From the NCBI GenBank assembly GCA_965662235.1, contig CBFIGY010000011.1, positions 21,328-85,327 on the forward strand: a stretch of DNA of 64,000 nt, written 5' to 3'. This document shows positions 645-22,760 of the stretch, one piece after another (the first letter of the stretch is position 1; the number at the start of each line of letters is the position of its first letter). Position numbers and translations under genes: made by a program. Origin of the DNA: an uncultured bacterium (GTDB lineage Bacteria; SAR324; NAC60-12). The notes beneath the pieces were generated by a model that saw only the letters and a list, made by a program, of their open reading frames with translations, was not told the DNA's origin and ran no database searches.

Positions 645-708
645 GAGGAACGCAGGAGGGTGAGGCCCGAAGGCCCAAAGGCTCCGGAGGTCCGGAGCCC
701 GTTTGGGA

Positions 709-5524: not shown

Positions 5525-5527
5525 TTT

Positions 5528-5560: not shown

Positions 5561-5603
5561 ATGCATCTTTCTGAGATTAAATCAAGCTAATCTTGAGGTA
5601 AGC

Positions 5604-7654: not shown

Positions 7655-8163
7655 CGTCACCTCACGAAGCCTTTGTTCCTGCAGAAGCGGATTCGAAGTC
7701 CTACCGGAACCTGCTGGGACTCTTTGGCACCGGAGTCACCATCATCACAACCCAGACTCCTCAGGGACCGGTGGCCATGACCGCCAACAGCTTCACCTCG
7801 GTGTCGCTGGACCCGCCTCTGATCCTCTGGTCGCTTGCGCACTCGTCGAGCCGGTTTGATGCCTTCGCCGCGGCACCGCACTTTGCCATTCACTTCCTGC
7901 TGGAGGACCAGTTGGAACTGGCGGCTCGTTTTGCCAAGGACGGGTGGGACTTCACCGGGGTGCCCTGGAGCAAAGGTCACGGAGAGAGCCCGTGCCTAGA
8001 GGTTTGCCTAGCACGCCTGGAGTGCTCGCTGGAAACGACGCATGAGGCAGGTGACCACCGCATGATGCTCGGCCGGGTGCAGCGCGTCCAGCAGCAGTCA
8101 GAAGCAGACCCGCTGCTGTTTTACTCCGGAGGCTACGGAACCTTTACTCGTTCGGCTTCGTGA
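7651..8163 (+). CDS. flavin reductase family protein (NAD(P)H:FMN oxidoreductase, HpaC/RutF-like)
   Basis: 170 aa with LFGTGVTIITT...MTANSFTSVSLDPPLILWSL, the hallmark of the flavin-reductase-like split-barrel fold. Confidence 0.85.
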   Translation: MTSPHEAFVPAEADSKSYRNLLGLFGTGVTIITTQTPQGPVAMTANSFTSVSLDPPLILWSLAHSSSRFDAFAAAPHFAIHFLLEDQLELAARFAKDGWDFTGVPWSKGHGESPCLEVCLARLECSLETTHEAGDHRMMLGRVQRVQQQSEADPLLFYSGGYGTFTRSAS

Positions 8164-9092
8164 CAAGTCCGGCCCCGGAAGCAAGCACCTCGCGAGCCCG
8201 CTTGCTCGCCTTGCTGGGCGATCTTCCCGAACGTCACGGCGTTCCGGAAGGCGAGCCGGTGCAGGTGCGTGAGCACGACACCTACAGGGAAGAGCACTGG
8301 GTCCTGGCCCTCAATGAGCAGGAACCCGTTCCGGCGGTGCTGCTGCGCCCTCAACGTACGGAACCAGGCCCGGCGGTGCTCTATCACCACGCGCACGGCA
8401 ACGACTACGTCCGGGGCAAAGATGAGCTGCTCGCAGGGCGTCCCGCTCTGCGTCGTCCGTATGGGCCTGAACTCGTGGAGCAGGGCTTTACCGTGCTCTG
8501 CATCGACGCTTGGTGCTTTGGGGAACGCCGTGGCCGGAGCGAGTCTGCGACCTTCAAGGAAATGCTCTGGAAGGGACAGGTTCTTTGGGGGCAGATGGTC
8601 TTTGACACGCTCCGGGCCTTCGACTTCCTGGCTGGGCATCCGCAGGTGCAGGCCGATCGCATTGTCAGCATGGGACTTTCCATGGGAGGCACCATGGCCC
8701 TCTGGGCCGCTGCCTTGGAGCCGCGGATTCAGGCTTGTGTGGATCTCTGCAGCCTGACGGATTTTCAGGCCCTGATTGATCAACAGGGGCTAGACGGACA
8801 CGGGCTTTACTACTACGTCCCCGGGCTCCTCAAACACTTTTCCGCGTTGGAACTCAACCACTTGGTCTGTCCGCGTCCTCGCCTCAGCGTTGTTGGACGG
8901 CATGACCCCTTGACGCCGATTGCCGGAGTGCAGTTGATTGATTCTGTATTGACTGAATCATATCGGCAGAGTGGAGCCCAGGGCCACTGGACCCTGCGCG
9001 TGAACGAAACCGGTCATTTCGAAACGGAGGCCTCGCATCAGCAGGTGCGGGACTTCCTGAGTGCTCTCAATTCCCCCTCGCTCACCTCCTGA
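8160..9092 (+). CDS. alpha/beta-fold hydrolase (dienelactone-hydrolase/esterase-like)
   Basis: GxSxG nucleophile elbow (GLSMGG) and a C-terminal His region. It is the last gene of the coupled four-gene operon (GTGA overlap start). Confidence 0.7.
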   Translation: MTSPAPEASTSRARLLALLGDLPERHGVPEGEPVQVREHDTYREEHWVLALNEQEPVPAVLLRPQRTEPGPAVLYHHAHGNDYVRGKDELLAGRPALRRPYGPELVEQGFTVLCIDAWCFGERRGRSESATFKEMLWKGQVLWGQMVFDTLRAFDFLAGHPQVQADRIVSMGLSMGGTMALWAAALEPRIQACVDLCSLTDFQALIDQQGLDGHGLYYYVPGLLKHFSALELNHLVCPRPRLSVVGRHDPLTPIAGVQLIDSVLTESYRQSGAQGHWTLRVNETGHFETEASHQQVRDFLSALNSPSLTS

Positions 9093-9125
9093 TCCAGAAA
9101 CTGCCTATGACTTGACCTTGCAGCA

Positions 9126-9151
9126 GGGACTCGTTTTGATCCCAAAGTCCC
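9126..9151 (+). terminator. stem-loop downstream of the hydrolase gene, possibly an operon terminator without a U-tract
   Basis: GGGACT-N14-AGTCCC inverted repeat 34 nt after the stop at 9092. There is no clear T-run, so this is uncertain. Confidence 0.3.
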
Positions 9152-9217
9152 TCTCATTGAGAGTTCATTGACGACTGCCCTTGAGGCAGGACTAGAATCA
9201 CCTTACTTGGAGAAACC

Positions 9218-10495
9218 ATGAAAATGTTTGCCAAACAGATGGTCCGGGCGCTGCTGTCAGCCGGCCTGATTGCCAGCATGAGCCTTGCGGCTCAGGCCGT
9301 GGAACTGAGCTTCATGCTCAACTCGGATGGAAAAGAAGTCGAGGTCCTGCAGGACTTCATTGACCGCTACGAGCAGGCGAATCCGGGTGTGACCGTGAAG
9401 ATGAACGTGGTGGGCTACAACGTCATCCGCGAGCAACTGGAGTCTCAGCTGCAGGCCGGTGGCGGACCCGACATCGGGAAAGTGACCAACCTCGGTGGCC
9501 TGAATCCATACTACCTTGACCTGACGCCGTACGTGAACGCGTCGGAGTGGGAATCCATGTATGGCGCCGTCCTGCCGTGGTACCGCGCGGGCAAGCCCGG
9601 AGGCATCTATGGCTTCCATTCGGAAATGACCGTGACGGGCCCTTACGTCAACGTCACCATGTTTGAAGAGGCCGGAGTCGACCTCCCGGGTCCCGGGGCC
9701 ACGTGGGACGACTGGGCCACCGCGACCCAGCAGGTGATGGAAGGCACCGGTTCTTATGCCGCCATGGTCATGGACCGCTCCGGTCACCGCATGGCGGGTC
9801 CGGCAATGTCTTACGGCGCCAAGTACTTTGACGCCCAGGGCAACCTGATCATTGACGAAGGCTTCCGCAACTTCGCTGAGCGCATGGTGAAGTGGCACCA
9901 AGATGGACTGATGCCTCCGGACATCTGGCCGGCGGTTTCAGGTTCCAAGTACGCCAACGGCAACGAGATGTTCTTCAACCAGGATGTCCCGTTCTACATG
10001 TCTGGCTCCTGGAACGTGGCCAACGTTTCCAAGAACGTTGGGGACAAGTTTGACTGGCGAGTGGTTCCGGTGCCGTGTGGTCCGTCCGGTTGTGGCATCA
10101 TGCCCGGAGGCGCTGGTTTTGTGGCCTTCAACACGAGCAAGCACCCGGCAGAAGCTGCCAAGTTTGTTGCGTGGATGGGAGAGTACAAGCAGGCGAAGGA
10201 GTACTACAGCCGCATCTACGCCATTCCAGCCAATGCCCGGGTTCAGGAAGAAGGCATTGACTACTCTCAGTATGGCGCTTCGGCGTCCATTTCTGCGGGG
10301 CTGAACGTCTTTGCTTCCAGTGCCGCGCAAGCTGCCAAGCAGACGCCTCAGGCATACACCCTTCAGGGGAATCCCTTCAACTTTGTCATCTTCAACGCCA
10401 CCACGCAGTACCTGGCGGCCGTCATGAACGGTGAGTTGACGATGAACGAGGCCATGGACAAGATCCGTCAAGAGATTGCGGACAAGGCCAAGTAA
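9218..10495 (+). CDS. carbohydrate ABC transporter substrate-binding protein (family 1)
   Basis: Signal peptide MKMFAKQMVRALLSAGLIASMSLAAQA plus SBP_bac_1-like composition. GGAGAAACC Shine-Dalgarno upstream. Confidence 0.85.
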   Translation: MKMFAKQMVRALLSAGLIASMSLAAQAVELSFMLNSDGKEVEVLQDFIDRYEQANPGVTVKMNVVGYNVIREQLESQLQAGGGPDIGKVTNLGGLNPYYLDLTPYVNASEWESMYGAVLPWYRAGKPGGIYGFHSEMTVTGPYVNVTMFEEAGVDLPGPGATWDDWATATQQVMEGTGSYAAMVMDRSGHRMAGPAMSYGAKYFDAQGNLIIDEGFRNFAERMVKWHQDGLMPPDIWPAVSGSKYANGNEMFFNQDVPFYMSGSWNVANVSKNVGDKFDWRVVPVPCGPSGCGIMPGGAGFVAFNTSKHPAEAAKFVAWMGEYKQAKEYYSRIYAIPANARVQEEGIDYSQYGASASISAGLNVFASSAAQAAKQTPQAYTLQGNPFNFVIFNATTQYLAAVMNGELTMNEAMDKIRQEIADKAK

Positions 10496-10545
10496 GCCTG
10501 CTTTCAACCGAGGCCAGTGCGCTGGCCTCTCTCCCCCACAAAAAC

Positions 10546-11979
10546 ATGTCACCGTCTGCCTGGATCATCTCGATCGTTGGGGTGCTGTGGATTGGAGGCG
10601 GCTCGCTGTGGCTGCTCACCAAACAGCGCTACCGGATTGACCAGATTCCTCACTTCTTCATCGACCTCCTTGGGGTCCCGGTTGAATGGGCCCAGAGCAT
10701 TTGGGGGCGCAAGGGGGTTCCGTACGCCTTTTTGCTCCCGAACATGGTCATCTTTGGGATGTTCACCTTCATCCCGGTTCTGCTGAACTTTTACGTCTCC
10801 TTCACAAGTGGAGACTCCATTTCGATTTTTGAACGGCCCTTTGTCGGCTGGGAGAACTACAACCAGATCTTCGACTGCGACACCATTTTGGAGCCGAAGA
10901 CCTGTCCAAACGCCGGCTACAACTTCTGGCAGAGCCTGTTCAACACCCTGCTCTTCATTGTCTTTCAGGTTCCCATCCTCTGTGGAATGGCGCTGCTGAC
11001 GGCACTGGTGGTCAACAAGGCCATGTCGGGCCGAGGCTTCTGGCGGGCGATGTTCTTCTACCCGGTGATGCTCTCTCCGGTGGTGATTGCCAACATCTGG
11101 CAGTGGATCCTGCACCGGAAGGGGGCACTGAATGCGACCCTTGCCAGCGGCAACCAGACGGTCAATGAACTGGCGGGGATGGCGGGATTTGACATCACGG
11201 TCACGGTCTTGGTGGGCATCCTCATGCTGCTTTCCATGGAGCGGGCGCTTCGCAGTGACGTCATGCCGTCGATCCCCTGGACCTCTCTCTTCGCACTTCT
11301 CTTTCTGGCAGTGGTGTCCTGGTCCAACCCAGCGGGCATGCTGGGAGCCACATCGGTCCCGCTCAACACGCTGTTGGGGGTGCTGCTGGGAGGGGGCTTG
11401 GTGGTTCTGGCGTTACTGGATCACCCCAAGCTGTCTTGGGGATTTGTGGCCCTGGGCGCTGTGGCTGCAGGATTGCTGCTCACCATTCAGTTTGACGCGG
11501 TCTTTGACCTAGGACGCTTCCGTCCCATCAACTGGCTGATCACCCCTCGCACCAGCTGGCCCTTCTTCTGGGTGGTTTTCGTCTACTGCTGGTCGCACAT
11601 GGGGTACTACATGCTGATCCTCCTGGCAGGCCTGCAGGCCATTCCTCCGGATCTTTACGAGGCGGCAAAGATGGATGCCGCCAAGCCCACTCGGGTCTTC
11701 TGGCGCATCACGCTGCCGCTGCTGATGCCGACCTTCACGGTGGTGTTTGTGCTGTCGCTGATCAAGAGCTTCCAGATCTTTGATGAAGTCTACCTGCTCA
11801 CCGGAGGAGGCCCCGGACGGGAGACCTTCATGATTGTTCAGCACATCGTTGAGGTGGCGTTTTCAGATGATCAGGCGAATTTCGGAGAAGCGGCGGCCGC
11901 GTCCGTGTTGATGGCGCTGGTGATCGCTGTCTTTACGTTCTTCCAGCTCTACTTCACCCGCAAGCAATCGGGAGTGTAA
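10546..11979 (+). CDS. carbohydrate ABC transporter permease (MalF/UgpA-like) with an N-terminal extension
   Basis: Multi-TM protein with the EAA loop EAAKMDAAKPTRVFWRITLPLLMPT. The start is uncertain because there is no clear Shine-Dalgarno at 10546. Confidence 0.8.
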   Translation: MSPSAWIISIVGVLWIGGGSLWLLTKQRYRIDQIPHFFIDLLGVPVEWAQSIWGRKGVPYAFLLPNMVIFGMFTFIPVLLNFYVSFTSGDSISIFERPFVGWENYNQIFDCDTILEPKTCPNAGYNFWQSLFNTLLFIVFQVPILCGMALLTALVVNKAMSGRGFWRAMFFYPVMLSPVVIANIWQWILHRKGALNATLASGNQTVNELAGMAGFDITVTVLVGILMLLSMERALRSDVMPSIPWTSLFALLFLAVVSWSNPAGMLGATSVPLNTLLGVLLGGGLVVLALLDHPKLSWGFVALGAVAAGLLLTIQFDAVFDLGRFRPINWLITPRTSWPFFWVVFVYCWSHMGYYMLILLAGLQAIPPDLYEAAKMDAAKPTRVFWRITLPLLMPTFTVVFVLSLIKSFQIFDEVYLLTGGGPGRETFMIVQHIVEVAFSDDQANFGEAAAASVLMALVIAVFTFFQLYFTRKQSGV

Positions 11980-11981
11980 CC

Positions 11982-13061
11982 ATGTCTCAGGTCATCACCT
12001 TCCTCACCCGCACCCGTGGCGGCACGAATGGCCGACGCATCGGTCTCTCCGATGTGCTGGTGTACAGCTACCTTCTCTTTGGCGTGGCCCTGATCATCGT
12101 CCCTGTGCTGTGGGCCTTTGTCAGTTCGCTCAAGTCAAAGGAAGCCCTGGAGCGCTTTGACACCCGAATCCTGCCTTACAATCAGGTGGAGCAGACGATT
12201 GAGGGCGTTGGGCCCAAAGCGGTGTACCTCTGGAATCAGCCCGATGGAACCCAGCAGGAGGTCTTCAAGACGGGACCAACCCGGCGCATGACGCCGGTGG
12301 CGCCGGTGGACAACCCCTCTGCAGAGGTGGAGGCTCCCCGAAAGGAGCTTGCTCCCAAGGAGGAACTCAAGGTTGCCACAGAGAACTACCTCAATCCGCT
12401 GCTTCAGCAGGAGGGGCAGCAGAACTTCTTCTTCTTCCGTTACCTGTCCAACACCGTTTTCGTCACAGTTGTGGCGACGCTGATCACGTTGCTGATCAAT
12501 GCCATGGCGGCCTACGCCCTTTCCAAGTACCGCTTCAAGGGCCGGATGGCGTTCACGGTGCTGATCATTTCCACACTGCTGATTCCGGCAACGATCATCC
12601 TTGTGTCCCTCTTCTTTGTCGTGTGGATGCTGGGCATCTTCGGATCCCTCTGGGGCGTGATCATTCCGGCGGCGGCGACCCCCACGGGCGTGTTCCTGCT
12701 CCGGCAGTACATGTTGACCATTCCGGATGAGCTGATTGAAGCTGCCCGCATGGATGCTGCCTCGGAGTGGAAGATCTTCTGGCGCATCATCCTCCCGCTG
12801 TCGCTTCCGGCGCTGGCGGTGCTGGCCATTCTTTCCGTCATCTGGCGGTGGAATGACTTCCTCTGGCCCCTGATTGTCCTTATTTCGGATCCGGAGCAGC
12901 ACACCCTGCAGATTGGACTGACCGCCTTCACCGGACAGTACAACACGGACTATCACTACATCCTCGCCATGACTGTGGTGTCGCTGCTGCCAGTGACTGC
13001 AGTCTTTGCCTACATGCAACGGTTCATCACAACCGGAATCGCCTCAACAGGTTTGAAATGA
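11982..13061 (+). CDS. carbohydrate ABC transporter permease (MalG/UgpE-like)
   Basis: EAA loop EAARMDAASEWKIFWRIILPLSLPA. It includes a roughly 100-aa periplasmic insert after TM1. Confidence 0.85.
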   Translation: MSQVITFLTRTRGGTNGRRIGLSDVLVYSYLLFGVALIIVPVLWAFVSSLKSKEALERFDTRILPYNQVEQTIEGVGPKAVYLWNQPDGTQQEVFKTGPTRRMTPVAPVDNPSAEVEAPRKELAPKEELKVATENYLNPLLQQEGQQNFFFFRYLSNTVFVTVVATLITLLINAMAAYALSKYRFKGRMAFTVLIISTLLIPATIILVSLFFVVWMLGIFGSLWGVIIPAAATPTGVFLLRQYMLTIPDELIEAARMDAASEWKIFWRIILPLSLPALAVLAILSVIWRWNDFLWPLIVLISDPEQHTLQIGLTAFTGQYNTDYHYILAMTVVSLLPVTAVFAYMQRFITTGIASTGLK

Positions 13062-14167
13062 CATCCTCCAAAGCTCTGGAACTCCGAGACATCCGCAAAG
13101 CCTTCGGTCCCGTAGAGGTCATCCATGGCGTGGACCTCGCCATTGAAGAAGGGGAGTTCATCGTCTTCGTCGGCCCCTCCGGCTGCGGGAAGTCCACCCT
13201 CTTGAGGCTCATTGCAGGGCTGGAGGATCCGACCTCCGGTGATCTGCTGCTGGATGACCGTCGTGTGAATGACGTCCCTGCGTCTGAGCGGGGGCTGGCG
13301 ATGGTCTTTCAGTCCTATGCGCTTTATCCGCACATGAGCGTGTTCAAGAACCTCTCGTTCGGACTGGAGAACCTGCGGGTGGACAAGGCTGAGATTGAAC
13401 AGCGGGTGCAGCATGCCTCAAAGATGCTGCAGATCGACCAGCTGCTCGAGCGACGTCCCGGGCAGCTCTCGGGGGGGCAGCGCCAGCGGGTGGCAATTGG
13501 TCGTGCCATTGTCCGGCAGCCCCGAATCTTTCTCTTTGATGAGCCGCTTTCGAACCTGGACGCTGAGCTGCGGGTGCAGATGCGGGTGGAGATTTCGAGC
13601 CTCCACGACCGGTTGGGCAATACCATGATTTACGTGACCCACGACCAGGTGGAGGCGATGACCATGGCCGACCGCATTGTGGTGTTGAACAAGGGCGGGA
13701 TTGAGCAGGTCGGGGCTCCTCTGGAGCTGTACAACCACCCTGTCAACAAGTTTGTGGCCGGCTTCATTGGCTCGCCCCGCATCAACTTCCTAGCGGGCAT
13801 GGGACAGAGTCAGGACGCTGGAGTTTCGGTGAAGCTAGACTGCGGGCCGCAGCTCACACTCCCGGGGACTGCTGAGACGTCCTTCAACGAGGCCGTCAGC
13901 CTTGGGGTCCGTCCGGAGGCTGTGCACGTTCGGTTAGACGGCAGCGGGGAGATTCAAGGCACGGTTCGGAATTTCGAGCAGCTGGGCTCCATTACCTACC
14001 TGTACGTCGAGCTGCCGAACCAGGAAATGCTGACCGTGCACCTTTCCAGCCAGCTCAAGGTGCAGCGTGGGCAGTCCGTTGGGGTGCACTTTGAACCCTC
14101 TGAGTGCCACCTCTTCCGGGAAACAGATGGCGCCACGCTGGTGACCGCAACCCAAACCAGCAACTGA
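13058..14167 (+). CDS. ABC transporter ATP-binding protein (MalK/UgpC-like)
   Basis: Walker A GPSGCGKST, signature LSGGQRQRVAIGRA, Walker B IFLFDEPLSNLD, and a C-terminal TOBE/MalK regulatory domain. ATGA overlap with the preceding permease. Confidence 0.9.
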   Translation: MTSSKALELRDIRKAFGPVEVIHGVDLAIEEGEFIVFVGPSGCGKSTLLRLIAGLEDPTSGDLLLDDRRVNDVPASERGLAMVFQSYALYPHMSVFKNLSFGLENLRVDKAEIEQRVQHASKMLQIDQLLERRPGQLSGGQRQRVAIGRAIVRQPRIFLFDEPLSNLDAELRVQMRVEISSLHDRLGNTMIYVTHDQVEAMTMADRIVVLNKGGIEQVGAPLELYNHPVNKFVAGFIGSPRINFLAGMGQSQDAGVSVKLDCGPQLTLPGTAETSFNEAVSLGVRPEAVHVRLDGSGEIQGTVRNFEQLGSITYLYVELPNQEMLTVHLSSQLKVQRGQSVGVHFEPSECHLFRETDGATLVTATQTSN

Positions 14168-14178
14168 ACAGAGGCCCG

Positions 14179-15459
14179 ATGACCTACGGCGTCTCCGTCC
14201 GAGACTTTGGGGCTAAAGGGGATGGCCTCAGCGATGACCAAGAGGCACTGCAGCGGGCGCTCAATTCAGGGGCGCCACGGGTGGTGGTGCCGCTGGGACA
14301 GTACCGGCTGGGCCGCACCCTGCGCATTGGCTCCGGAACCCGGCTGCAGGTGCACCCGCATGCGGTGTTACGCCTAGCAGAGGGGGCTGGAACCGACCAG
14401 AGCATCCACCTGATCAGCAACCAGCATCCGGAGACGGGAGACACAGAGGTGGCCATCGAAGGAGGCATTTGGGATGGGAACAACCCGACCAACCCTCGAG
14501 GTCCCGATGCACCCGGAAGCTACACGGGCGTCGCGTTGCAGTTTCACAACGTCCGGGGCCTGGAACTGCGGAACCTGACCATTCAGGATCCGGAGTCCTA
14601 CCACATCCGCCTGAGCCGGGTCCGTCACTTTCGGGTGGAAGGCATCCGCTTTGAAACCCGCCACTTCCGTCCCAACCAAGACGGCGTCCACCTCGGAGGC
14701 TTCTGCGAAGACGGCGTCATCCGTGACATCCGAGCCCTCACCGACGGGGCCCCAAATGACGATGTCGTGGCGCTCAATGCCGATGATGCAAACGGTCGTG
14801 CCCAGAACCTGGGACGCGTCAACGGCCCCATCCGCCGACTCCGCATTGACACCCTGGAAGCGACCAACTGCTTCACCTTCCTTCGCCTCGCCAGCGTCTG
14901 GTCTCGGATTGAGGACATTGACGTCCGGCACATCCGAGGAGGATGCCGCAACTACTTGGTCAACTGTGACGCGCTCCGCTACTGCCGCACCCCGCTCTTT
15001 GAAGCTGACCATCCGGAAGCCCAAGAGGGCGTCGGTTGGCTCCGGAACATTGCGTTGCGGGACATCGAGGTGCACAAAACCGAGGAGCATTCGCTGGATC
15101 CGCTGCTGATGCTGGAGACCCGAATGGAGAACTGGCTGGTGGAGGACTTCCGACGCAACCTGGATCAAGATGAGTACCCGGAAGCGCCCACGATTCGCCT
15201 TCAGCACGTCCTCAGTCCAGAGGTGGTGCTGGACGGGGTTCCGGAAGCTGATGCCACCGTCTTGGGCCGTGCGCTGCCTCCGGGATGGCAGCAACAGGCG
15301 CTGCCGGCTTACCGGGCGGGGGCCCCGGAGTTCCGCTTTCAGGGACCGGTGGGCACTCAGGCGCCGCTTCTTTATTTTGGGTCTCGCTTTCGGCGCCTGC
15401 AGGTACTAAACTCCGTGAAAACCTCTTGGCCCTGCCTGGAGGAATCCGAATCCGTTTGA
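14179..15459 (+). CDS. right-handed beta-helix protein (pectate-lyase superfamily / GH28- or GH55-like glycosidase)
   Basis: N-terminus YGVSVRDFGAKGDGLSDDQEALQRAL is the classic opening of pectate-lyase-superfamily and GH28 beta-helix enzymes. Start placed at the ATG at 14179 rather than 14104. Confidence 0.6.
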   Translation: MTYGVSVRDFGAKGDGLSDDQEALQRALNSGAPRVVVPLGQYRLGRTLRIGSGTRLQVHPHAVLRLAEGAGTDQSIHLISNQHPETGDTEVAIEGGIWDGNNPTNPRGPDAPGSYTGVALQFHNVRGLELRNLTIQDPESYHIRLSRVRHFRVEGIRFETRHFRPNQDGVHLGGFCEDGVIRDIRALTDGAPNDDVVALNADDANGRAQNLGRVNGPIRRLRIDTLEATNCFTFLRLASVWSRIEDIDVRHIRGGCRNYLVNCDALRYCRTPLFEADHPEAQEGVGWLRNIALRDIEVHKTEEHSLDPLLMLETRMENWLVEDFRRNLDQDEYPEAPTIRLQHVLSPEVVLDGVPEADATVLGRALPPGWQQQALPAYRAGAPEFRFQGPVGTQAPLLYFGSRFRRLQVLNSVKTSWPCLEESESV

Positions 15460-15486
15460 CGCAACCTCCCTCTGCCAGACCTTTGT

Positions 15487-16257
15487 ATGGTTGACCTTGA
15501 CTCCGCCCTCACTCAGTTTGACGCCGACGGCTACCTCATTTTTCCAAGGTTCTTTGACCCGGCTGACATTCAGGGGCTTCAGGAACGCATTGATGCAATC
15601 ATGCTCGGCACCGCCCCTGTGGACTATGATCAGATCTGGATGCAACTGGACACCGACTCAGGAAAGTACGAGGACCTCCAATGGGGCGGCAATGGCTTCC
15701 GGGGCGCTTCCCTCGACTACCGGAAGATTCAGGGGTTGGAGACCGATGAGCGCTTCCACGCCTTCATCACGGCGCCGTTTTTTGTGGAACTCTGCCGACG
15801 TGTTTATGGGCCAGAGCTTCCCATTGCCGCCTACCGGACCATGTTCATGAACAAGGCTGCCGGCAAGGGCACTTGGCTTCCATGGCATCAGGACCGCTGG
15901 ACGCACTTGGACCAGGATCCCCTCCTCACGGTCTGGATCCCCCTCGATGCGGCCACTCAGGCCAACGGATGCGTGCAGATCATCAAAGGGTCGCACCGCA
16001 AAGGGTTGCTGAATCCAGATCACCCCTCAGGTTACCTCACGGAGGCGCAGACCGCAGAGCACGTGCGTCCGGAGGACATTGTTTACCTCACCGTTGAGCC
16101 CGGGGACCTTGTGGTTTTGCACAACCTGCTGCTGCACGCTTCAGACGTCAACCGGACGTCTCATCCGCGCCGCGCCCTGAGCGTGTGCTACATGAACGGG
16201 CAGACCCGGAACCTAGACGCTCCTCAAACGCCGTACCCTTCCCTCTTCACCACCTGA
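15487..16257 (+). CDS. phytanoyl-CoA dioxygenase (PhyH) family Fe(II)/2-oxoglutarate oxygenase
   Basis: PhyH-like motifs: WHQD (HxD iron ligands), ...ANGCVQIIKGSHR (distal His), and the overall length. Confidence 0.7.
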   Translation: MVDLDSALTQFDADGYLIFPRFFDPADIQGLQERIDAIMLGTAPVDYDQIWMQLDTDSGKYEDLQWGGNGFRGASLDYRKIQGLETDERFHAFITAPFFVELCRRVYGPELPIAAYRTMFMNKAAGKGTWLPWHQDRWTHLDQDPLLTVWIPLDAATQANGCVQIIKGSHRKGLLNPDHPSGYLTEAQTAEHVRPEDIVYLTVEPGDLVVLHNLLLHASDVNRTSHPRRALSVCYMNGQTRNLDAPQTPYPSLFTT

Positions 16258-16259
16258 GC

Positions 16260-17315
16260 ATGCTCCACGTGGCGCTTCTGGGGTGTGGGGTCATTGGAAC
16301 TCTGCACTTCCAGATCCTTCAGCAGCATCCGGAGGTTCACTTGCATCTCTGTGACGTCGATCGCCGTCAAGCGGAGCGGTTGCAGCCAAAGGCTCCGGTG
16401 TGGGATAACCCGGAGCGCCTGCTTGAGGAGGTGCCGCTGGACCTCGTGAGCATCTGCACGCCTCATCCCTCTCATCCGGACCTGATTCACGCCTGCCTGG
16501 CTCACGGCATTCCGGTGGTTTGTGAGAAGCCCCTTTGCACCTCGGTTCCGGACCTGCAGCGCCTGCGAGCGCTGGCGGAAACCTCTGCCAACCATCAGGT
16601 TACCGGCATCTTTCAGCACCGCTATGCACCGGCTGCGCTCCTCCTGAAGCGTCTTCTGGAGGAAGGCGCCTTTGGCACCTTGGAAGTCACCCGGGCTCGA
16701 TTCCGGTGTGACCGAGGACCCGACTACTATGCCAGCGCTCCGTGGCGAGGCACCCGAATGGGAGAAGGAGGAGGCGTGGTCCTCAATCAGGGCATCCACA
16801 CCCTCGACCTCTGGCAGTGGTGGCTGGGAGGGATTGCTGCCGTTTCTGGCGCCACCCCGACGCTGGTGGGAAAGGCGTTTCTTGAAGTGGAAGACACGCT
16901 GCAGGGGCACGACTCTGAGTGGGCGTGGGTTCAGTTTGCTTCCGGGCTGGAAGGAGCGGTGCAGATGCTCAACCGCCCCGGGTTGCCGTGGGATCCGCAG
17001 CTGGAAATTCACGGCACCCGCGGGTCCTTCTGCTACACCACCAATGACAACGGACGCTTCCTCTCCCTGAGCCACGAGGATCCGGAGGTGCTTGCGGCGC
17101 TGCAAGCTGTCACTCAACCGGAACCGTCCACCAGGGCCAAACCCGAATACAGCGACCTGCACCAGGTTCAACTGGCCGACGTCCTCACCCGTTTGCAGCA
17201 GGGCGCTCCTCCTCGGATTCCTCTGAGTGAGGCGCTCCCTGCCAACGAGGTGGTCCTGGCGTTTTACGAATCCTCCCGTCGGCAGACGACGGTTTCTCTT
17301 CCTCTTACTTTGTAG
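16260..17315 (+). CDS. Gfo/Idh/MocA family oxidoreductase
   Basis: LHVALLGCGVIGTLH Rossmann motif, CEKPL motif and a GFOR C-terminal domain. Start is the ATG at 16260, which follows the upstream stop. Confidence 0.85.
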   Translation: MLHVALLGCGVIGTLHFQILQQHPEVHLHLCDVDRRQAERLQPKAPVWDNPERLLEEVPLDLVSICTPHPSHPDLIHACLAHGIPVVCEKPLCTSVPDLQRLRALAETSANHQVTGIFQHRYAPAALLLKRLLEEGAFGTLEVTRARFRCDRGPDYYASAPWRGTRMGEGGGVVLNQGIHTLDLWQWWLGGIAAVSGATPTLVGKAFLEVEDTLQGHDSEWAWVQFASGLEGAVQMLNRPGLPWDPQLEIHGTRGSFCYTTNDNGRFLSLSHEDPEVLAALQAVTQPEPSTRAKPEYSDLHQVQLADVLTRLQQGAPPRIPLSEALPANEVVLAFYESSRRQTTVSLPLTL

Positions 17316-17324
17316 CACCTGCTT

Positions 17325-18488
17325 ATGCGTCACCTGAAGCTTGGCCTCATTGGCCTGGGCAACATGGGCTCTCAGCACTACCAATCCATCCAGCAGGGGC
17401 ACCTGCAACGGGTGGCCGTCACCGCTGTTTGCGATACCGACCCTGCACGGCTGGAAGGGCTGGATCCGCAGGTGCCGCGCTTTGCCTCCAGTGCGGACCT
17501 CATCCGCTCCGGAAAGGTGGACGCGGTGCTGATTGCCACCCCGCACTACGACCACACCACCATCGGCATTGATGCGCTGGAGCAGGGACTGCACCTGCTC
17601 GTGGAGAAACCGATCTCGGTCCACAAACGGGACTGCCTGAAGCTCCTGCAGGCCTATGAGCAGCGCCCGCGTTCCGAGCAGGTGTTTGGGGCCATGTTCA
17701 ATCAACGGACGGACCCACGTTACCAGAAGCTCCGGACGCTCATTCAAGACGGCGAGTTGGGAACCCTGAGGCGCATGAACTGGATCATCACCGACTGGTT
17801 CCGGACCGACATCTACTACCGGAGCGGAGGCTGGCGAGCCACCTGGAAGGGAGAAGGCGGCGGCGTCCTCCTGAATCAGTGCCCGCATCAGCTGGACCTG
17901 CTCTGGTGGCTGTTTGGGCCTCCGGAGTCGGTCTGGGCGCAGTGCCGCTTCGGTCAGTGGCATGACATTGAGGTGGAAGACGACGTGACCGCGTTGCTGA
18001 CCTATGCCAACGGCGCGACCGGAACCTTCACAACGACCACGGGCGAAGCACCCGGCACCAACCGTCTGGAGATTGTTGGAGAGAAGGGCACCGTTGTGGC
18101 GGATGACGAGGGGCTCCGCTGGTTCCAGAACGCGACTCCGATTTCAGACTACTGCCAAAACTCGGACCAACCGTTTGGCAAACCAGAGGTGACAGAGGTC
18201 TTTCTGCCGTTTGAAAGTCGGGGGGGCCAGCACCGGGAGGTGCTGCAAAACTTTGTGGATGCGGTGCTGGACGGAGCTTCCTTGCTGGCCCCTGCTGTTG
18301 AAGGCATCCACAGTGTGGAACTGGCCAACGCGATGCTGCTTTCCACCTTCGAGGGGGCAGCGGTCCCGTTTCCGTTGGACGCGGAACAGTACTGGAAGCA
18401 CCTAGAGGCTCGCATTGCGACCAGCTCCTTCCGTCAAGACACCGTTTCGGTGACCGTGGACGCCGCGGCGATGAGCAACTCCTACTGA
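17325..18488 (+). CDS. Gfo/Idh/MocA family oxidoreductase
   Basis: LKLGLIGLGNMGSQH Rossmann motif and VEKPIS motif. Confidence 0.85.
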   Translation: MRHLKLGLIGLGNMGSQHYQSIQQGHLQRVAVTAVCDTDPARLEGLDPQVPRFASSADLIRSGKVDAVLIATPHYDHTTIGIDALEQGLHLLVEKPISVHKRDCLKLLQAYEQRPRSEQVFGAMFNQRTDPRYQKLRTLIQDGELGTLRRMNWIITDWFRTDIYYRSGGWRATWKGEGGGVLLNQCPHQLDLLWWLFGPPESVWAQCRFGQWHDIEVEDDVTALLTYANGATGTFTTTTGEAPGTNRLEIVGEKGTVVADDEGLRWFQNATPISDYCQNSDQPFGKPEVTEVFLPFESRGGQHREVLQNFVDAVLDGASLLAPAVEGIHSVELANAMLLSTFEGAAVPFPLDAEQYWKHLEARIATSSFRQDTVSVTVDAAAMSNSY

Positions 18489-18500
18489 AAGAGGTCTTCC

Positions 18501-19505
18501 ATGATTCAATTTGCTTGCATTGGTTTGGACCACCGTCACGTGTACGGCATGACGGAGGGATTGATTGCTGCTGGAGCCCGCTGCGTGGGGTTCTACACTC
18601 GAGAAGACGCAGAGCCCCTGGAAGGCTTTGTGCGTCGGTTCCCGGAGGTTCCCCGCGTGGCGACGCCAGAGGAGCTTTATGAGCGCGACGACCTTCAGGT
18701 CATCGTCTGTGCCGGAATTCCTGCCGAGCGGGCGGAGATCTGCATTCAGGCCATGCGGCACGGCAAGGACGTCATGGTGGACAAACCCGGGGTGATTTCG
18801 CTGCAGCAGCTGGAGGCCGTGAAGGCGGCCCAAGCGGAAACCGGTGCCCGCTACAGCATCGACTTTTCTGAGCACTTTGAGGTCCCGGCGACCCTGAAGG
18901 CTAAGGAACTGATCGACCAAGGCGTCATTGGACAAGTGGTCCAGACCCTTGGGTTGGGACCTCACCGGCACAACGCGCACCTGCGGCGTCCCTGGTTTTA
19001 TGAGAAGGCGCAGTACGGAGGCATTCTCACGGACATTGCTTCGCACCAGATCGACCAGTTCCTCTGGCTCACGGGCTCTTCTGACGCTGAGATTGTCAGC
19101 AGCGCCGTGGGCAACTACGCCAATCCGCAACATCCCGAGCTGGAGGATTACGGCGAGGTCTCTTTGCGCAGCGCCACGGCCAATGGCTTCATTCGGGTGG
19201 ACTGGTACACTCCAGACGCGCTGCCCACCTGGGGAGACGGGCGCCTCTTCATTCAGGGCACAGAAGGGTACATGGAACTGCGCAAGTACGTGGACATTCA
19301 AGGTGCCGACGGAGACAACCACCTCCTGCTTGTGACCGGAGACCGCTATGAACGCATTGACTGCCGTTCGGTGCCAGTGACGTACTTTGAGCAGTTCCTT
19401 GAAGACGTCCGGAACCGGACGGAAACGACGATGACGCATGAGCACTGCTTCACGGTCTGCCGCCTCGCTCTGGAAGCCCAGGCCCGCGCCTCTCGTCTGA
19501 CCTGA
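18501..19505 (+). CDS. Gfo/Idh/MocA family oxidoreductase (divergent member)
   Basis: IQFACIGLDHRHVYG N-terminus and VDKPGV motif. The fold is GFOR-like, but this is a more divergent paralogue. Confidence 0.75.
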   Translation: MIQFACIGLDHRHVYGMTEGLIAAGARCVGFYTREDAEPLEGFVRRFPEVPRVATPEELYERDDLQVIVCAGIPAERAEICIQAMRHGKDVMVDKPGVISLQQLEAVKAAQAETGARYSIDFSEHFEVPATLKAKELIDQGVIGQVVQTLGLGPHRHNAHLRRPWFYEKAQYGGILTDIASHQIDQFLWLTGSSDAEIVSSAVGNYANPQHPELEDYGEVSLRSATANGFIRVDWYTPDALPTWGDGRLFIQGTEGYMELRKYVDIQGADGDNHLLLVTGDRYERIDCRSVPVTYFEQFLEDVRNRTETTMTHEHCFTVCRLALEAQARASRLT

Positions 19506-19513
19506 GCCTCCGT

Positions 19514-22500
19514 ATGCCGGCACTGCCTCCTTACCAATGGCCCTTGCACCGAACCCGCATCCGGCAATTCCGTGAACGGGTCGAGGCTCGGATCCTAGCA
19601 GACTGGGTGCCCCTGCAGGCACGTTTTGCCCGGACGGTTGACCCGGTGCCGTTTGCGGAGCGGCAGGCCTTGGCCTACCAGCCCATTGAAGAAGGAGCGG
19701 TCTGGGGCACGACCTGGGACAGCGCCTGGTTTCACCTGACGGGAACCATCCCGGAGGCATGGCGTCACGAGAGAGTGGTGGCCGTGTTGGATTTCAATGG
19801 TGAGGGGTTGGTGTTCTCAGAAACCGGAGACCCGCTGCAGGGGCTGACGAACGGCAGCGTGTTTGGTGACCTGACCCGCAACACCTTCCGGATTCCCTCC
19901 TCGAATGGCGCCCGCCCGTCGGTGGACCTGTGGGTCGAGGCGGCGGCCAATGGCCTTTCGGGAGTTGCACAGCAGCGCAACCCACCCGGAACATTGAACC
20001 GAGAGGGCCTTTATGAAGGTCGCGTGAACCGCATCCGGCTGGCTCGTTTCCCGGAGGAACTCTATCACCTTTGGCTGGATCTGGAGGTGCTGGAAGGCGT
20101 CTTGGACACGGTTCCGGAAGACTCCATGCGGTTTGCCCGTCTCCTCCAGGGGCTGGTGGCGGTGCAGGCTGTGTATGCCGACCAACCGGAGAACGCATCT
20201 CAGTGCCGGGCCTTTTTGGCGCCGCTGCTGCAGATGCCTGCCCATGCAACCACCCTGACCCTCCAAACCGTTGGGCACGCCCACATTGACACCGGATGGC
20301 TCTGGCCCGTCCGGGAAACGATCCGCAAGTGTGCCCGGACCTTTGCCAACCAGTTGGACCTTCTGGAACGCTATCCGGACTACGTCTTTGGGGCATCGCA
20401 GCCCCAGCACTATGCCTTTGTCAAGCAGCACTACCCAACGCTGTATGCTCGGGTGCAGGAGGCGGTCGCGTCCGGGCGCTGGGAGCTTCAGGGCGGCATG
20501 TGGGTGGAGCCCGACTGCAACCTGGTGAGCGGCGAGTCTCTGGTACGGCAGATTCTTCATGGCAAGAACTTCTTCTGGCAGGAGTTTGGAGTGGAGGTCA
20601 AGACCTGCTGGATTCCGGACGTTTTCGGGTACTCCGCGGCACTGCCTCAGATTCTGCGCAAGTCCGGGATTTCGAGCTTCCTGACACAGAAGATCAGCTG
20701 GAACCAGTTCAACCGCTTCCCGCACCACACCTTCCGGTGGCAGGGGTTGGATGGCTCCGAAGTGCTCACCCACTTTCCTCCTGAAGACACCTACAACAGC
20801 CAACTGACAGCGGCTGGACTCAAGAAGGCGGAGCGGCAGTTTGCAGAGAAGGGGTTTCTGGACACAGCAATGAACCTCTTTGGCGTCGGAGACGGCGGAG
20901 GCGGTCCGACAGCAGAGATGATTGAACGCGGCAGGCGGCACCAGAATCTGGAAGGCTTGCCCCGGGTCCGCTTCGGGCGTGCCGATGCGTTTTTCGAAGC
21001 CCTGGCGTCTCAGGCTGAAGAGCTTCCGGTGTGGGTGGGCGAGCTTTACCTCGAGTACCACCGTGGCACCTACACCTCGCAGGCCCGGACCAAGTGGAAC
21101 AACCGCCGCTTGGAGGAAGCGCTCCGGGCAACAGAGTACCTTTACAGCCGCTTTCTTCCCCTAGACGCCTATCCTGCAGACACGCTTGAGGCGACCTGGA
21201 AGACCCTGCTCCTCAATCAGTTTCACGACATCCTTCCCGGGTCCAGCATCGGGTGGGTGTATGAGGTGACGGAACGTGAGCATGCGCAGGCACTGGCCAC
21301 CTGTGCCCACCTCCAAGACGCTGCGGCTGCGGTGGTGTTTCCAGAGCATCCGGACCGTTTGGTGCTGCTCAACACCCTGACGGTTCCCGTCACGTCCTCC
21401 CTGCTCCTCCCTTCCGGATGGGCGGGGGCTCAGCTTTTGGGCGGCCAGCCGCTGCCGACTCAGGCAGACCCGGACGGTTCGGTCTGGGCTCAGATCACGG
21501 TTCCAAGCCAAAAGGTTCTGACGCTTGAGCGCGGTCCCGAGGCGCCGACGTCGGTTCCGGAACCGCAGCGGGTGCTGGAAAATGACTGGATCCGCTACGA
21601 ACTGACGGAGCACGGTGAGCTGTGCCGGGCGTATGACAAGGAACTCCAGCGCGAGTGGTTGCCCCCGGGAACCCTGGGCAACGTCCTCTCGCTTTATGAA
21701 GACCAGCCTCACGCCTATGATGCCTGGGAAATCGACATCGGTTACGAAGCCTTGCTTCTGGAGACCGCTCAGGGGCAGTCTTGGACCTCGATGGGAAGCG
21801 GGCCGGTGCAGCAAGGACTGCGCTTCGTGCTCCGCGTGGGGCTGTCGACCCTGACCCAAACCCTGACGCTGGCAACGCACTCCCGGGAGCTGCGGGTGAC
21901 CACCGAAGTGGACTGGCAGGAAACGCACCGGATGCTCCGTGTCGCCTTCCCGGTTGCGGTGCAGAGTGACGCTGCGACCTTTGCCGTGCAGTTTGGCACC
22001 GTCAAGCGTCCGACTCATCAGAACACCAGTTGGGACGTCGCGCGCTTCGAAAGCGTTGCCCACCAGTTTGTGGACCTCTCGGATGCGTCCGGAGGCGTGG
22101 CACTGCTCAACGATGGCAAGTACGGACACAAGGTTCAGGGCGCCTGCCTCGACCTCAACCTCCTCCGCTCTCCCACCGATCCGGATCCGCACGCAGATCA
22201 AGGCCTCCACCGCTTCACCTACAGCTTCTTTCCTCATCCGGGAGACGTCGTCACCGGAAACGTTTGGGCGCAGGCGCAGGCTCTCAATCAGCCGCCGCTG
22301 TGCTTTCCCGGACGCACGGCCATGGAAACAGAGGCGCCGCAGGTTCGGGTGGTGGGCGAAGGTCTCAGCCTAGAAGCCTTCAAGAAAGCCGAGCAGGAAG
22401 CCTGCTGGGTGATCCGGATTGTGGAGGTGCTCGGGCGGAGCTGCACGGGGGGCCTCGAAGTGCCTCCGGAAGTTGAGATTGAGGAGACGGACCTGATGGA

Positions 22501-22612
22501 GTGGAAGCCCCTTGCTGGGCGACATACGGGGGCCATGCCATTGAACTTTCAGCCTTTTGAAATCCGGACCTTCAAGCTGTACCCACCACCGGAGTTGTCT
22601 TCAGACTCCTGA
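19514..22612 (+). CDS. glycoside hydrolase family 38 alpha-mannosidase
   Basis: 1032 aa with the GH38 catalytic-region motif VGHAHIDTGWLWP and a length and architecture typical of bacterial GH38 enzymes. Confidence 0.85.
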   Translation: MPALPPYQWPLHRTRIRQFRERVEARILADWVPLQARFARTVDPVPFAERQALAYQPIEEGAVWGTTWDSAWFHLTGTIPEAWRHERVVAVLDFNGEGLVFSETGDPLQGLTNGSVFGDLTRNTFRIPSSNGARPSVDLWVEAAANGLSGVAQQRNPPGTLNREGLYEGRVNRIRLARFPEELYHLWLDLEVLEGVLDTVPEDSMRFARLLQGLVAVQAVYADQPENASQCRAFLAPLLQMPAHATTLTLQTVGHAHIDTGWLWPVRETIRKCARTFANQLDLLERYPDYVFGASQPQHYAFVKQHYPTLYARVQEAVASGRWELQGGMWVEPDCNLVSGESLVRQILHGKNFFWQEFGVEVKTCWIPDVFGYSAALPQILRKSGISSFLTQKISWNQFNRFPHHTFRWQGLDGSEVLTHFPPEDTYNSQLTAAGLKKAERQFAEKGFLDTAMNLFGVGDGGGGPTAEMIERGRRHQNLEGLPRVRFGRADAFFEALASQAEELPVWVGELYLEYHRGTYTSQARTKWNNRRLEEALRATEYLYSRFLPLDAYPADTLEATWKTLLLNQFHDILPGSSIGWVYEVTEREHAQALATCAHLQDAAAAVVFPEHPDRLVLLNTLTVPVTSSLLLPSGWAGAQLLGGQPLPTQADPDGSVWAQITVPSQKVLTLERGPEAPTSVPEPQRVLENDWIRYELTEHGELCRAYDKELQREWLPPGTLGNVLSLYEDQPHAYDAWEIDIGYEALLLETAQGQSWTSMGSGPVQQGLRFVLRVGLSTLTQTLTLATHSRELRVTTEVDWQETHRMLRVAFPVAVQSDAATFAVQFGTVKRPTHQNTSWDVARFESVAHQFVDLSDASGGVALLNDGKYGHKVQGACLDLNLLRSPTDPDPHADQGLHRFTYSFFPHPGDVVTGNVWAQAQALNQPPLCFPGRTAMETEAPQVRVVGEGLSLEAFKKAEQEACWVIRIVEVLGRSCTGGLEVPPEVEIEETDLMEWKPLAGRHTGAMPLNFQPFEIRTFKLYPPPELSSDS

Positions 22613-22760
22613 AAAGACGCTGTCGCTTGCTCCTTTTTTCTGGACTCGTCACAATGGAAACCTTCCTCTGAGGGAACCTGCTCCTGAGCCGGAACCTCCG
22701 GCATCAGCAGGCCCACCTTGGGCCAGGCGCCCACGTTCATTGGTCTTCATCACAACTTCC

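Follow-up and report, generated by a model that had tools for sequence, protein, structure and literature searches.

A Sugar ABC Importer and Three Gfo/Idh/MocA Oxidoreductases in the Transporter Slot of a Predicted Sulfoquinovose Monooxygenase Cluster of an Uncultured SAR324 Bacterium

Introduction

Which substrate is imported and processed by a long run of sugar transport and sugar modification genes in an uncultured bacterium of the SAR324 lineage (NAC60-12)? The run is located at positions 9218-22612 of a 64,000-nucleotide (nt) stretch of DNA (assembly GCA_965662235.1, contig CBFIGY010000011.1, positions 21,328 to 85,327 of the forward strand), which was analyzed as a whole and is called the window. 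It encodes an ATP-binding cassette (ABC) importer, a beta-helix protein, a PhyH-family oxygenase, three Gfo/Idh/MocA oxidoreductases (GFO1, GFO2 and GFO3), and a glycoside hydrolase of family GH38. An earlier note had suggested that the run is an operon by which a mannose-containing glycan or glycoside could be processed oxidatively. The present analysis favors a different substrate, i.e., with a probability of roughly 0.45 the run takes up glycosides with an anionic C6, in this case sulfoquinovosides, processes them in the cytoplasm and feeds the sulfoquinovose monooxygenase (SMO) pathway, the genes of which lie upstream on the same strand. Sulfoquinovose is a sulfur-containing sugar of the membranes of plants and algae.

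Known clusters of the sulfo-SMO and sulfoquinovose dioxygenase (sulfo-SDO) type encode SmoEFGH or a transporter of the tripartite ATP-independent periplasmic (TRAP) type, together with a sulfoquinovosidase of family GH31 or GH188, a single one in the case of sulfo-SMO. No mention of a mannosidase or a PhyH-type oxygenase was found in the literature on these clusters that was searched, and a limited search retrieved neither a description of a module with several GFO proteins in such clusters nor a combination of sulfoquinovose (SQ) with GH38. While the SMO core itself is known, a role of such oxidoreductases and glycosidases in sulfosugar breakdown has apparently not been described before.

Results

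The Sulfo-SMO Core

Gene families were assigned using Pfam, and structural relatives were retrieved by sequence matches to the Protein Data Bank (PDB), given in bits. The earlier note had let the run begin at 9218, which was too narrow, because the same strand extends upstream to position 5604 and includes smoC, smoB, smoA and an esterase gene. The first of these, SmoC (5604-6761, plus strand), is an SsuD-like protein of the luciferase-like monooxygenase family with the predicted function of an FMNH2-dependent SQ monooxygenase. It matched the entry 7oh2 with 673 bits over residues 1-384, which is the whole length; this entry has the title 'alkanesulfonate monooxygenase', and we take it to be the SQ monooxygenase SmoC of Agrobacterium tumefaciens. 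The second protein, SmoB (6761-7654, plus strand), is an aldo-keto reductase and a predicted 6-oxo-glucose reductase, which matched 7bby/7bbz, presumably structures of SmoB, with 374 bits. Its gene overlaps the smoC stop codon by 1 nt. A SmoA-like flavin reductase (7651-8163, plus strand; Flavin_Reduct PF01613, 141 bits) and a cytoplasmic alpha/beta-hydrolase (8160-9092, plus strand; AXE1/Abhydrolase_1/DLH), which is a putative esterase with the nucleophile motif GLSMG (Ser174), complete this part. The four genes are connected by overlaps of -1, -4 and -4 nt, followed by a gap of 125 nt to the first gene of the run.

Two further genes are oriented divergently. The protein encoded at 3668-4795 (minus strand), the fourth GFO protein of the window, is a GH188-type NAD+-dependent sulfoquinovosidase, SqgA. 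It matched 8zn9 (RdSqgA) with 540 bits and 8qc3/8qc2 (ArSqgA/FlSqgA) with 377 bits, and it retained the sequence EHRFPFLEK with the Arg/Leu/Lys sulfonate triad as well as the catalytic Tyr (AMEYRY) and Glu/His (EKCCH). The entries 8qc2-8qc8 represent the GH188 NAD+-dependent sulfoquinovosidases FlSqgA and ArSqgA (PMC10755693), 8zn9 was deposited by Ma et al. 2025, and RdSqgA of R. denitrificans cleaves sulfoquinovosyl glycerol, SQGro (PMC12780224). Between sqgA and smoC, a SmoD-like regulator of the GntR/HutC type (GntR and UTRA domains) is encoded at 4799-5524 (minus strand), divergent from smoC and conserved in relatives. The earlier note had observed that neither a LacI/ROK regulator nor a kinase is present in the cluster; this is correct, however, the cluster does have this GntR/UTRA regulator. 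Judged from these homologies, the sulfo-SMO core of the window is predicted to be complete.

The Transporter Slot

The megaplasmid of Ruegeria sp. TM1040 and a plasmid of Rhizobium sp. SL42 carry SqgA-GntR and, divergently, SmoC-SmoB-SmoA, followed by three TRAP genes and, further along, a gene of a sulfate exporter family. The window is collinear with this Roseobacter-type sulfo-SMO (sulfo-ASMO) cluster for the first five genes, with the same split between the strands, and the identities to the Ruegeria TM1040 proteins are 65% (SqgA), 53% (GntR), 76% (SmoC), 60% (SmoB) and 42% (SmoA). In contrast to the Ruegeria and Rhizobium clusters, it has the esterase, a CUT1-type ABC importer, a GH28-like protein, PhyH, three GFO proteins and GH38, and neither a TRAP nor a sulfate exporter homologue was found within its 64 kb. 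The ABC genes thus stand in the slot that is occupied by TRAP genes in the known clusters, and the importer is a non-orthologous replacement.

The cluster smoABCDEFGHI of A. tumefaciens (Sharma et al. 2022) shares close SmoC and SmoB homologues, a GntR regulator and a CUT1 ABC importer with the window. In contrast to it, the window has a GH188 SqgA, and a GH31 SmoI was not observed within the cluster, the search for GH31 not covering the whole window; the extra enzymes of the window are in turn not among the listed members of the A. tumefaciens cluster. The substrate-binding protein (SBP) of the window was also considered as a SmoF-like protein. Its best PDB match had 52 bits, and no SmoF entry was among the matches at E<=1e-3 (phmmer), so that this assignment was rejected.

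Gene Content and Organization of the Run

All ten genes of 9218-22612 that the earlier note had described, on one strand and of the families it had named, were present. The SBP (9218-10495, SBP_bac_1) is a CUT1-type periplasmic sugar-binding protein with a signal peptide. It is followed by permease 1 (10546-11979, BPD_transp_1), which has 477 amino acids (aa) and a long N-terminal extension, permease 2 (11982-13061, BPD_transp_1) and a MalK/UgpC-type ATPase (13058-14167, ABC_tran and TOBE_2). Next to the transporter genes, a right-handed beta-helix protein with distant similarity to GH28 is encoded at 14179-15459, where the start was corrected from GTG 14104 to ATG 14179, and a PhyH-family Fe(II)/2-oxoglutarate oxygenase at 15487-16257. 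The three GFO_IDH_MocA genes have the positions 16260-17315 (GFO1, start corrected from 16185 to ATG 16260), 17325-18488 (GFO2) and 18501-19505 (GFO3), and GH38 (19514-22612) is the final gene. The signal peptide of the SBP is the only one among the proteins of the run; therefore, all enzymes are expected to be cytoplasmic.

The tight spacing reported earlier was largely seen, including an ATGA overlap, but the actual range is -4 to 50 nt rather than 3-30 nt; from the SBP gene to the GH38 gene the distances are 50, 2, -4 (ATGA), 11, 27, 2, 9, 12 and 8 nt. The composition is even, with a G+C content of 58-63% and 70-78% G+C at third codon positions. A terminator-like hairpin is located 3' of the GH38 gene (22781-22799). 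Scanning for consensus promoters and terminators yielded sites that were no commoner than in shuffled sequence, and thus a single transcript for 9218-22612 is plausible, but unproven. Co-transcription with smoCBA may be envisaged. In a DNA-level search of 5000-23000 against plasmids, the ABC ATPase gene alone was matched.

The 125-nt gap (9093-9217) before the SBP gene contains, on the plus strand, the inverted repeat AGGGAC(N18)GTCCCT with flanking blocks. Repeat and blocks are also present in L084, a locus of a close relative, despite a different upstream gene (smoA instead of the esterase gene), and the element is possibly an internal promoter, an operator or other regulatory site, or an RNA element. 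The second intergenic region of interest is the AT-rich divergent region 5525-5603 between the GntR gene and smoC. It has repeated AAATTGAT(A/G)(T/C)A... half-sites, which are near-identical in L084, and a similar AAAATTGATACACTATTGAT was seen in L107, another related locus; the half-sites may serve the SmoD-like regulator as operator. A search for a GntR operator shared by the regions upstream of smoC and the SBP gene revealed a weak resemblance of ATTGA half-sites only, and, therefore, co-regulation of the two is not claimed.

The ABC and GFO Genes Form a Module in Other Genomes

Metagenome contigs were scanned with the long permease 1, which resulted in 40 loci (designated with L numbers) that were mapped by tblastn. 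The gene contents of these loci and of others such as L132 were taken from the tblastn maps. Most loci have the layout [esterase]-SBP-permease-permease-ATPase-GFOa-GFOb-GFOc; a gene similar to CE15 glucuronoyl esterases often comes next, and in some loci (L095, L096 and L113) GH38 is found there. The identity of the transporter proteins to those of the window is 59-71%, with 60-69% for the SBPs, and for permease 2 the identity across the module loci is 65-72%. GFO3 and GFOb share about 43% identity, whereas GFO1 and GFO2 have merely 28-30% identity to GFOa and GFOc. The lineage of the window, i.e., the window, L084 and L087/88, has PhyH, GFO1 and GFO2 instead of GFOa and GFOc. Even here the content varies, in that the closely related L084 is devoid of the esterase and the beta-helix protein, and L088 of GFO1. 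The constant core consists of the ABC genes, a protein of the GFOb/GFO3 type and a partner GFO, and the variable accessories are GH38, the beta-helix protein, the esterase, CE15 and PhyH. The widespread module (e.g., L083, L095 and Phyllobacterium) shares with the window the gene order, in some cases GH38 at the 3' end and in L083 the beta-helix protein; in contrast to it, the window has no CE15 and is fused to the SMO genes.

In four lineages the module adjoins genes of SQ catabolism. In addition to the window with L084, these are L107, L109-L111 and L132. L107 encodes SqgA (68% identical), GntR, SmoC (78%) and SmoB, followed on the same strand by SBP-permease-permease-ATPase-GFOa-b-c, and no other transporter is present. 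The low-GC marine contigs L109-L111 encode a GH188 protein with the sulfonate motif, a SftI-like putative SQ isomerase of 457 aa, the esterase, the ABC importer and GFOa-b-c; the SftI-like protein reached 320 bits with the NCBIfam model, which is below the equivalog cut-off of 700. L132 (1-13630) has SqgA, SmoC (71%), a more distant ABC importer (SBP 42% identical), a 2-hydroxyacid dehydrogenase, a GFO3-like (58%) and a GFO2-like protein (63%), followed by a UxuB-like enzyme of the mannitol dehydrogenase family, a PF03601 exporter, a PfkB kinase and an aldolase of the 2-keto-3-deoxy-6-phosphogluconate (KDPG) type, and no SmoB is in view. As the linkage recurs in four lineages and with no fewer than two SQ pathways, chance is an unlikely cause. 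In a neighbour-joining tree of the binding proteins the SQ-linked SBPs were not monophyletic, and thus no sequence signature of SQ specificity emerged.

Two side observations concern these loci. L109, L110 and L111 also encode a 2-hydroxyacid dehydrogenase as well as a protein of 402 aa that faintly resembles glucuronate isomerase, and no transaldolase is visible. The gene content of L132 hints that 6-oxo-glucose may enter a pathway of the uronate/2-keto-3-deoxygluconate (KDG) type.

The second recurrent context is hexuronate catabolism. L083, from a metagenome-assembled genome of Pseudomonadota, has the beta-helix protein, the ABC importer, three GFO proteins, CE15 and GH38, and it adjoins uxaC, a uxuB-like gene, uxuA and GH2. 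In L093 and L108 the module is flanked by GH88 and a protein of about 850 aa. In Thalassococcus, the operon GFOa-GFOb-GFOc-uxuA is located on a plasmid next to a TRAP system, and uxaC and a uxuB-like gene diverge from this operon; in Paracoccus seriniphilus a GFO3 homologue is located on a plasmid behind a TRAP system with uxuA nearby, and on a Ketogulonicigenium plasmid it is divergent from uxuA-uxuB-uxaC. Together with L112, these are the cases with hexuronate genes (uxaC/uxuB/uxuA, CE15 or GH88) near the module or a GFO pair. Two further plasmids differ from this, as a GFO3 homologue is accompanied by ABC genes alone in Phyllobacterium (pT1293a), and a GFO pair in Qingshengfaniella lies beside proteins of the enolase superfamily and the gluconolactonase family. 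As the module or the GFO pair adjoins uxaC/uxuB/uxuA, CE15 or GH88, 6-anionic hexoses are generally indicated, and the common denominator of the contexts appears to be a hexose with an anionic C6, either glucuronate or SQ.

As a further observation, a protein of 810-880 aa without a match in Pfam or NCBIfam is encoded divergently (minus strand) upstream of the SBP gene in L089, L093, L098, L108, L114 and L118. In L093 and L108 its gene is next to GH88, and the protein might act on glycans that contain uronate, as a lyase or hydrolase of polysaccharides that has so far not been recognised.

The Three GFO Proteins

The earlier note had proposed that the GFO proteins are glycoside 3-dehydrogenases. 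For GFO2, this view was supported by homology to such an enzyme: it matched 8tdi, the 'P2B11 glucuronide-3-dehydrogenase' (P2B11-Oxido1), with 285 bits, and the next match had 137 bits. For the other two it was not supported, as GFO1 could not be clearly affiliated and GFO3 belongs to an uncharacterised family. The P2B11 set comprises four genes, two for oxidoreductases and two for sugar-phosphate isomerases; it hydrolyses alpha- and beta-glucuronides via a 3-keto intermediate, and sulfoquinovosides as well as 6-phospho and 6-sulfo glucosides are cleaved at a lower rate (bioRxiv 10.1101/2024.03.25.586180). GFO2 is a member of a very large family. Two contigs of Planctomycetota (L133/L134) have the gene order AraC, GFO, GFO2-like and AP_endonuc_2 TIM barrel, as in P2B11, and the GFO preceding the GFO2 homologue is 36-38% identical to GFO1. 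The best PDB match of GFO1 was 3q2i with 97 bits, which gave no clear affiliation, and GFO1 is likely the partner of GFO2.

GFO3 matched 3u3x (370 bits) and 2p2s (308 bits), which are structural genomics entries of unknown function. To P2B11-Oxido1 (8tdi), GFO3 reached at most 35 bits and GFO1 at most 69 bits. In the alignment, GFO3 and GFOb were devoid of the dinucleotide motif GxGxxG and had DKP instead of EKP (e.g., L095 14620-15624). Proteins of the GFO3/GFOb type were always accompanied by a partner GFO, GFO3 being the invariant core partner of the module, and they may be non-canonical or non-redox subunits. Orthologues of GFO3 are located in hexuronate clusters (uxaC/uxuA with TRAP or ABC). 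Literature searches for 3u3x/2p2s and for 'glucuronide-3-dehydrogenase' retrieved nothing useful.

Two other assignments were considered and rejected. GFO1-GFO3 are not GH188 proteins of the SqgA type, as 8qc2 was matched with 54 bits by GFO2 and 26 bits by GFO1 and was not in the match list of GFO3. Also a rhizopine/inositol (moc/iol) locus did not fit, as no IolC/D/E-type genes were present and the matches to the IolG model (NCBIfam) were weak.

The oxidative glycoside cleavage that had been suggested for the run was thus partly supported, i.e., by GFO2 and by the P2B11-like layouts in Planctomycetota; however, the sugar-phosphate isomerase/TIM-barrel eliminase on which the known stepwise oxidative systems (P2B11/AL/BT, CarABC/DgpABC and LgdA-C) rely is missing in the operon. 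Like the oxidative clusters P2B11, AL and BT (Nasseri et al.), the window pairs a P2B11-Oxido1 homologue with a second GFO. In contrast to these clusters, it has neither sugar-phosphate isomerase/AP_endonuc_2 partners nor DUF1080, and it adds a third GFO without GxGxxG.

Accessory Enzymes

The beta-helix protein matched PF12708 (Pect-lyase_RHGA_epim) with 37.8 bits, and GH28 reached 21.4 bits, below the cut-off of 22.9. It belongs to a family of proteins of about 420 aa from many phyla with invariant NQDG, DD and DD motifs. An AlphaFold2 model (pLDDT 90.9) was most similar in fold to GH28 exo- and endo-polygalacturonases and AlgE mannuronan epimerases, with TM scores of about 0.5 and 15-18% identity; all these GH28 and AlgE relatives act on uronic acids. 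Among the module loci the protein was found in the window and L083 only. Among the matches listed, its relatives in genome contigs were at most 39% identical, and the contexts of the homologues in L081 and L082 were not syntenic with the window. A tblastn search of plasmids with the beta-helix protein and GH38 revealed no close relatives.

PhyH (PF05721, 106 bits) has WHQD at 133-136 and the distal His in LLLHASD, which corresponds to the HxD...H iron triad. Comparisons with PDB and NCBIfam revealed no informative relative, and among the module loci the protein was limited to the window lineage (window, L084, L087/88). Homologues of the esterase precede the SBP in L087/88, L091, L104/5, L109-111, L114, L116, L118 and L119.

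GH38 has all three domains, N-terminal (PF01074, 319 bits), middle (PF09261) and C-terminal (PF07748), the metal-binding motif GHAHIDTGWLW at 255 and the Asp nucleophile in WIPDVFGYS at 368. It matched Ams1 in the PDB with 560 bits and is a predicted cytoplasmic alpha-mannosidase-type hydrolase similar to Ams1/MAN2C1. The full domain set, the catalytic motifs and the cytoplasmic location are shared with Ams1/MAN2C1 and MngB, but with the model of the mannosylglycerate hydrolase MngB it reached just 91 bits, compared to a cut-off of 1138. The context is also different, as it is a module for anionic sugars and not one of phosphotransferase system or N-glycan genes. GH38 closes the module also in L083, L095, L096 and L113, with 34-36% identity in three comparable loci, and it is missing in most module loci with a visible downstream region, e.g., L107, L110, L112 and L128. 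The nearest relatives of the window protein are 57-59% identical, and the single context that was inspected (L135) was not syntenic and had no such module. Because GH38 and the beta-helix protein are variable add-ons of a conserved ABC and GFO module, the mannose-centred route of the earlier note is weakly supported and doubtful, and the theme is likely 6-anionic sugars, SQ or glucuronate, and not mannans or N-glycans.

Neighbouring Genes

On the minus strand downstream of sqgA, a protein of about 413 aa without a match in Pfam or NCBIfam is encoded at 2404-3645, between sqgA and the gene for an Opp-type SBP. It has a signal-peptide-like N-terminus and the C-terminal sequence ...YQQTF, and it is 79% identical and syntenic in L084. 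The protein is probably an outer-membrane beta-barrel channel and may belong to the SQ locus. The adjacent SBP_bac_5 protein (709-2298, minus strand; PF00496, 340 bits) is an Opp/Dpp-type binding protein, the start of which (2298) was set by its signal peptide. Its gene, 93% identical at the protein level and syntenic in L084, is the last visible gene of the minus-strand operon. It belongs to a second ABC system (1-2298, minus strand), which is also syntenic in L084 and has a permease gene that runs off the window start.

Directly after the operon (about 22800-25278, plus strand), cobalamin biosynthesis genes follow, encoding a TP_methylase and a CbiG-TP_methylase fusion. Scans of the window with Rfam and for tRNAs were empty, i.e., no cobalamin riboswitch was detected. 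At 49625-52549 (plus strand) a 974-aa protein with many WD40 repeats is encoded, an unusual protein for a Gram-negative bacterium with flagella (FliM is encoded at 40842-41846).

Discussion

The results can be combined to the following model. A mobile module of the CUT1 ABC importer and the GFO genes would occupy the slot following smoCBA, and the ABC system would bring glycosides of SQ, or related ones with an anionic C6, into the cytoplasm. Acyl or glycosyl decorations would be trimmed there by the esterase, the GH28-like beta-helix protein and GH38. GFO2, together with GFO1 and GFO3, would open or convert 6-anionic hexose glycosides by NAD-dependent oxidation of a ring carbon, C3 by analogy, and SqgA would cleave SQGro. 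The freed SQ would enter the SMO pathway, in which SmoC, with FMNH2 supplied by SmoA, would remove sulfite and yield 6-oxo-glucose, and SmoB would reduce the latter to glucose. The core would probably be controlled by the divergent GntR regulator. In other organisms the same module would feed glucuronate to UxaC/UxuB/UxuA.

Of this model, the identities of the genes, the collinearity with the known clusters, the exchange in the transporter slot and the recurring linkage are shown by the data; the substrates, the chemistry of GFO1-GFO3, PhyH, GH38 and the beta-helix protein, and the co-transcription with smoCBA are inferred. The processing of sulfoquinovosides is supported by an SMO core with structurally solved homologues, the replacement in the transporter slot, the linkage in four lineages, the kinship of GFO2 with P2B11, the fold of the beta-helix protein and the lack of signal peptides in the enzymes. 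Several points weigh against it. As SqgA alone should release SQ from SQGro, there seems to be no need for the GFO proteins with this known substrate. The SBP has no detectable kinship to the SQGro-binding SmoF, and the SQ-linked SBPs do not form one clade. The run is separated from the SMO genes by the 125-nt gap with its conserved repeat, and no TIM-barrel eliminase or hydratase (xylose-isomerase-like, AP_endonuc_2) was found among the operon proteins using Pfam. For GH38, we know of no SQ-containing mannoside. Marinovum offers a precedent for misleading adjacency, as a GH13 protein within its SMO cluster is an ordinary alpha-glucosidase unrelated to SQ. Lastly, GFO pairs that occur with TRAP systems and without a glycosidase would fit an action on a free acid sugar.

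The last point leads to the most probable of the alternatives, which by itself is rather improbable. According to it, free sugars with an anionic C6, and not their glycosides, would be the substrates of the GFO proteins. These would catalyse either an isomerisation or epimerisation of the redox type, with a uronate, an aldonate or a sulfosugar as substrate, or the oxidation of 6-oxo-glucose to glucuronate or guluronate, which would link SQ desulfonation to the Uxu/KDG route, and the ABC system would simply import SQ or SQGro. Free aldoses or cyclitols are oxidised by numerous Gfo/Idh/MocA enzymes, and the GFO proteins of the window have weak NCBIfam matches to inositol dehydrogenases. GFOa-GFOb pairs together with TRAP transporters, which are typical for free acid sugars, and uxuA/uxaC were seen in Thalassococcus, Paracoccus and Ketogulonicigenium, and L132 joins SmoC with the GFO3-like, GFO2-like and UxuB-like proteins, PfkB and the KDPG-type aldolase in the visible absence of SmoB. 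In the window, however, SmoB is present and 6-oxo-glucose already has a sink. Furthermore, the CUT1 transporter, the esterases (alpha/beta-hydrolase and CE15) and the glycosidases (GH38, GH28-like, GH88 and GH2) that accompany the module indicate glycosides, and the nearest characterised relative of GFO2 works on glycosides.

A somewhat less probable explanation is that the ABC importer alone serves SQ, in replacement of TRAP or SmoEFGH, and that the downstream enzymes are hitch-hikers without a role in SQ breakdown. The Marinovum case shows that this can happen, and the accessories indeed differ between close relatives, since L084 has neither the beta-helix protein nor the esterase and L088 has no GFO1. 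Nevertheless, the GFO genes have been kept with tight spacing or overlaps in all SQ-linked versions (window, L084, L107, L110 and L132), and the uniform composition argues against recent unselected cargo.

Least probable is the SQ-independent processing of a mannose-containing glycan or glycoside, with demannosylation by GH38, 3-keto cleavage by the GFO proteins and SMO genes adjacent by chance, because, although GH38 is intact, Ams1-like and located at the module end in five loci (window, L083, L095, L096 and L113), GFO2 is akin to a glycoside 3-dehydrogenase and the 125-nt gap sets the run apart, the module sits in the transporter slot of an SMO operon and is linked to SQ genes of two pathways in four lineages, most module loci with a visible downstream region have no GH38, the nearest GH38 homologue inspected lies outside such a module, and neither the SQ/uronate linkage nor the variability of GH38 would be explained.

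The processing of sulfoquinovosides by the run can be generalized, albeit tentatively. The ABC and GFO genes might form an anomer-independent, NAD-dependent system for the uptake and opening of 6-anionic hexose glycosides, both sulfoquinovosides and glucuronides, which is plugged into sulfo-SMO, sulfo-isomerase or hexuronate pathways. PhyH, the beta-helix protein, the esterase and GH38 might then give access to SQ glycoconjugates beyond SQGro, e.g., acylated or further glycosylated sulfolipid head groups. If this were true, natural SQ conjugates and SQ-processing enzymes would exist that have not yet been described.

SQ is produced at about 10 billion tonnes per year (PMC10755693). Its degradation is one of the major steps in the sulfur cycle. 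The usual transporter is replaced by an ABC importer and a GFO set in the window as well as in three further lineages, and elsewhere this module is used for hexuronate catabolism. If the GFO proteins should not act on sulfoquinovosides, the locus would be a further warning, like Marinovum GH13, against deducing function from adjacency. If they do, a new uptake system and new enzymes would stand at the gateway to SQ catabolism, broader markers for SQ degraders in metagenomes would become available, and the locus would be a hint of SQ conjugates beyond sulfoquinovosyl diacylglycerol (SQDG) and SQGro.

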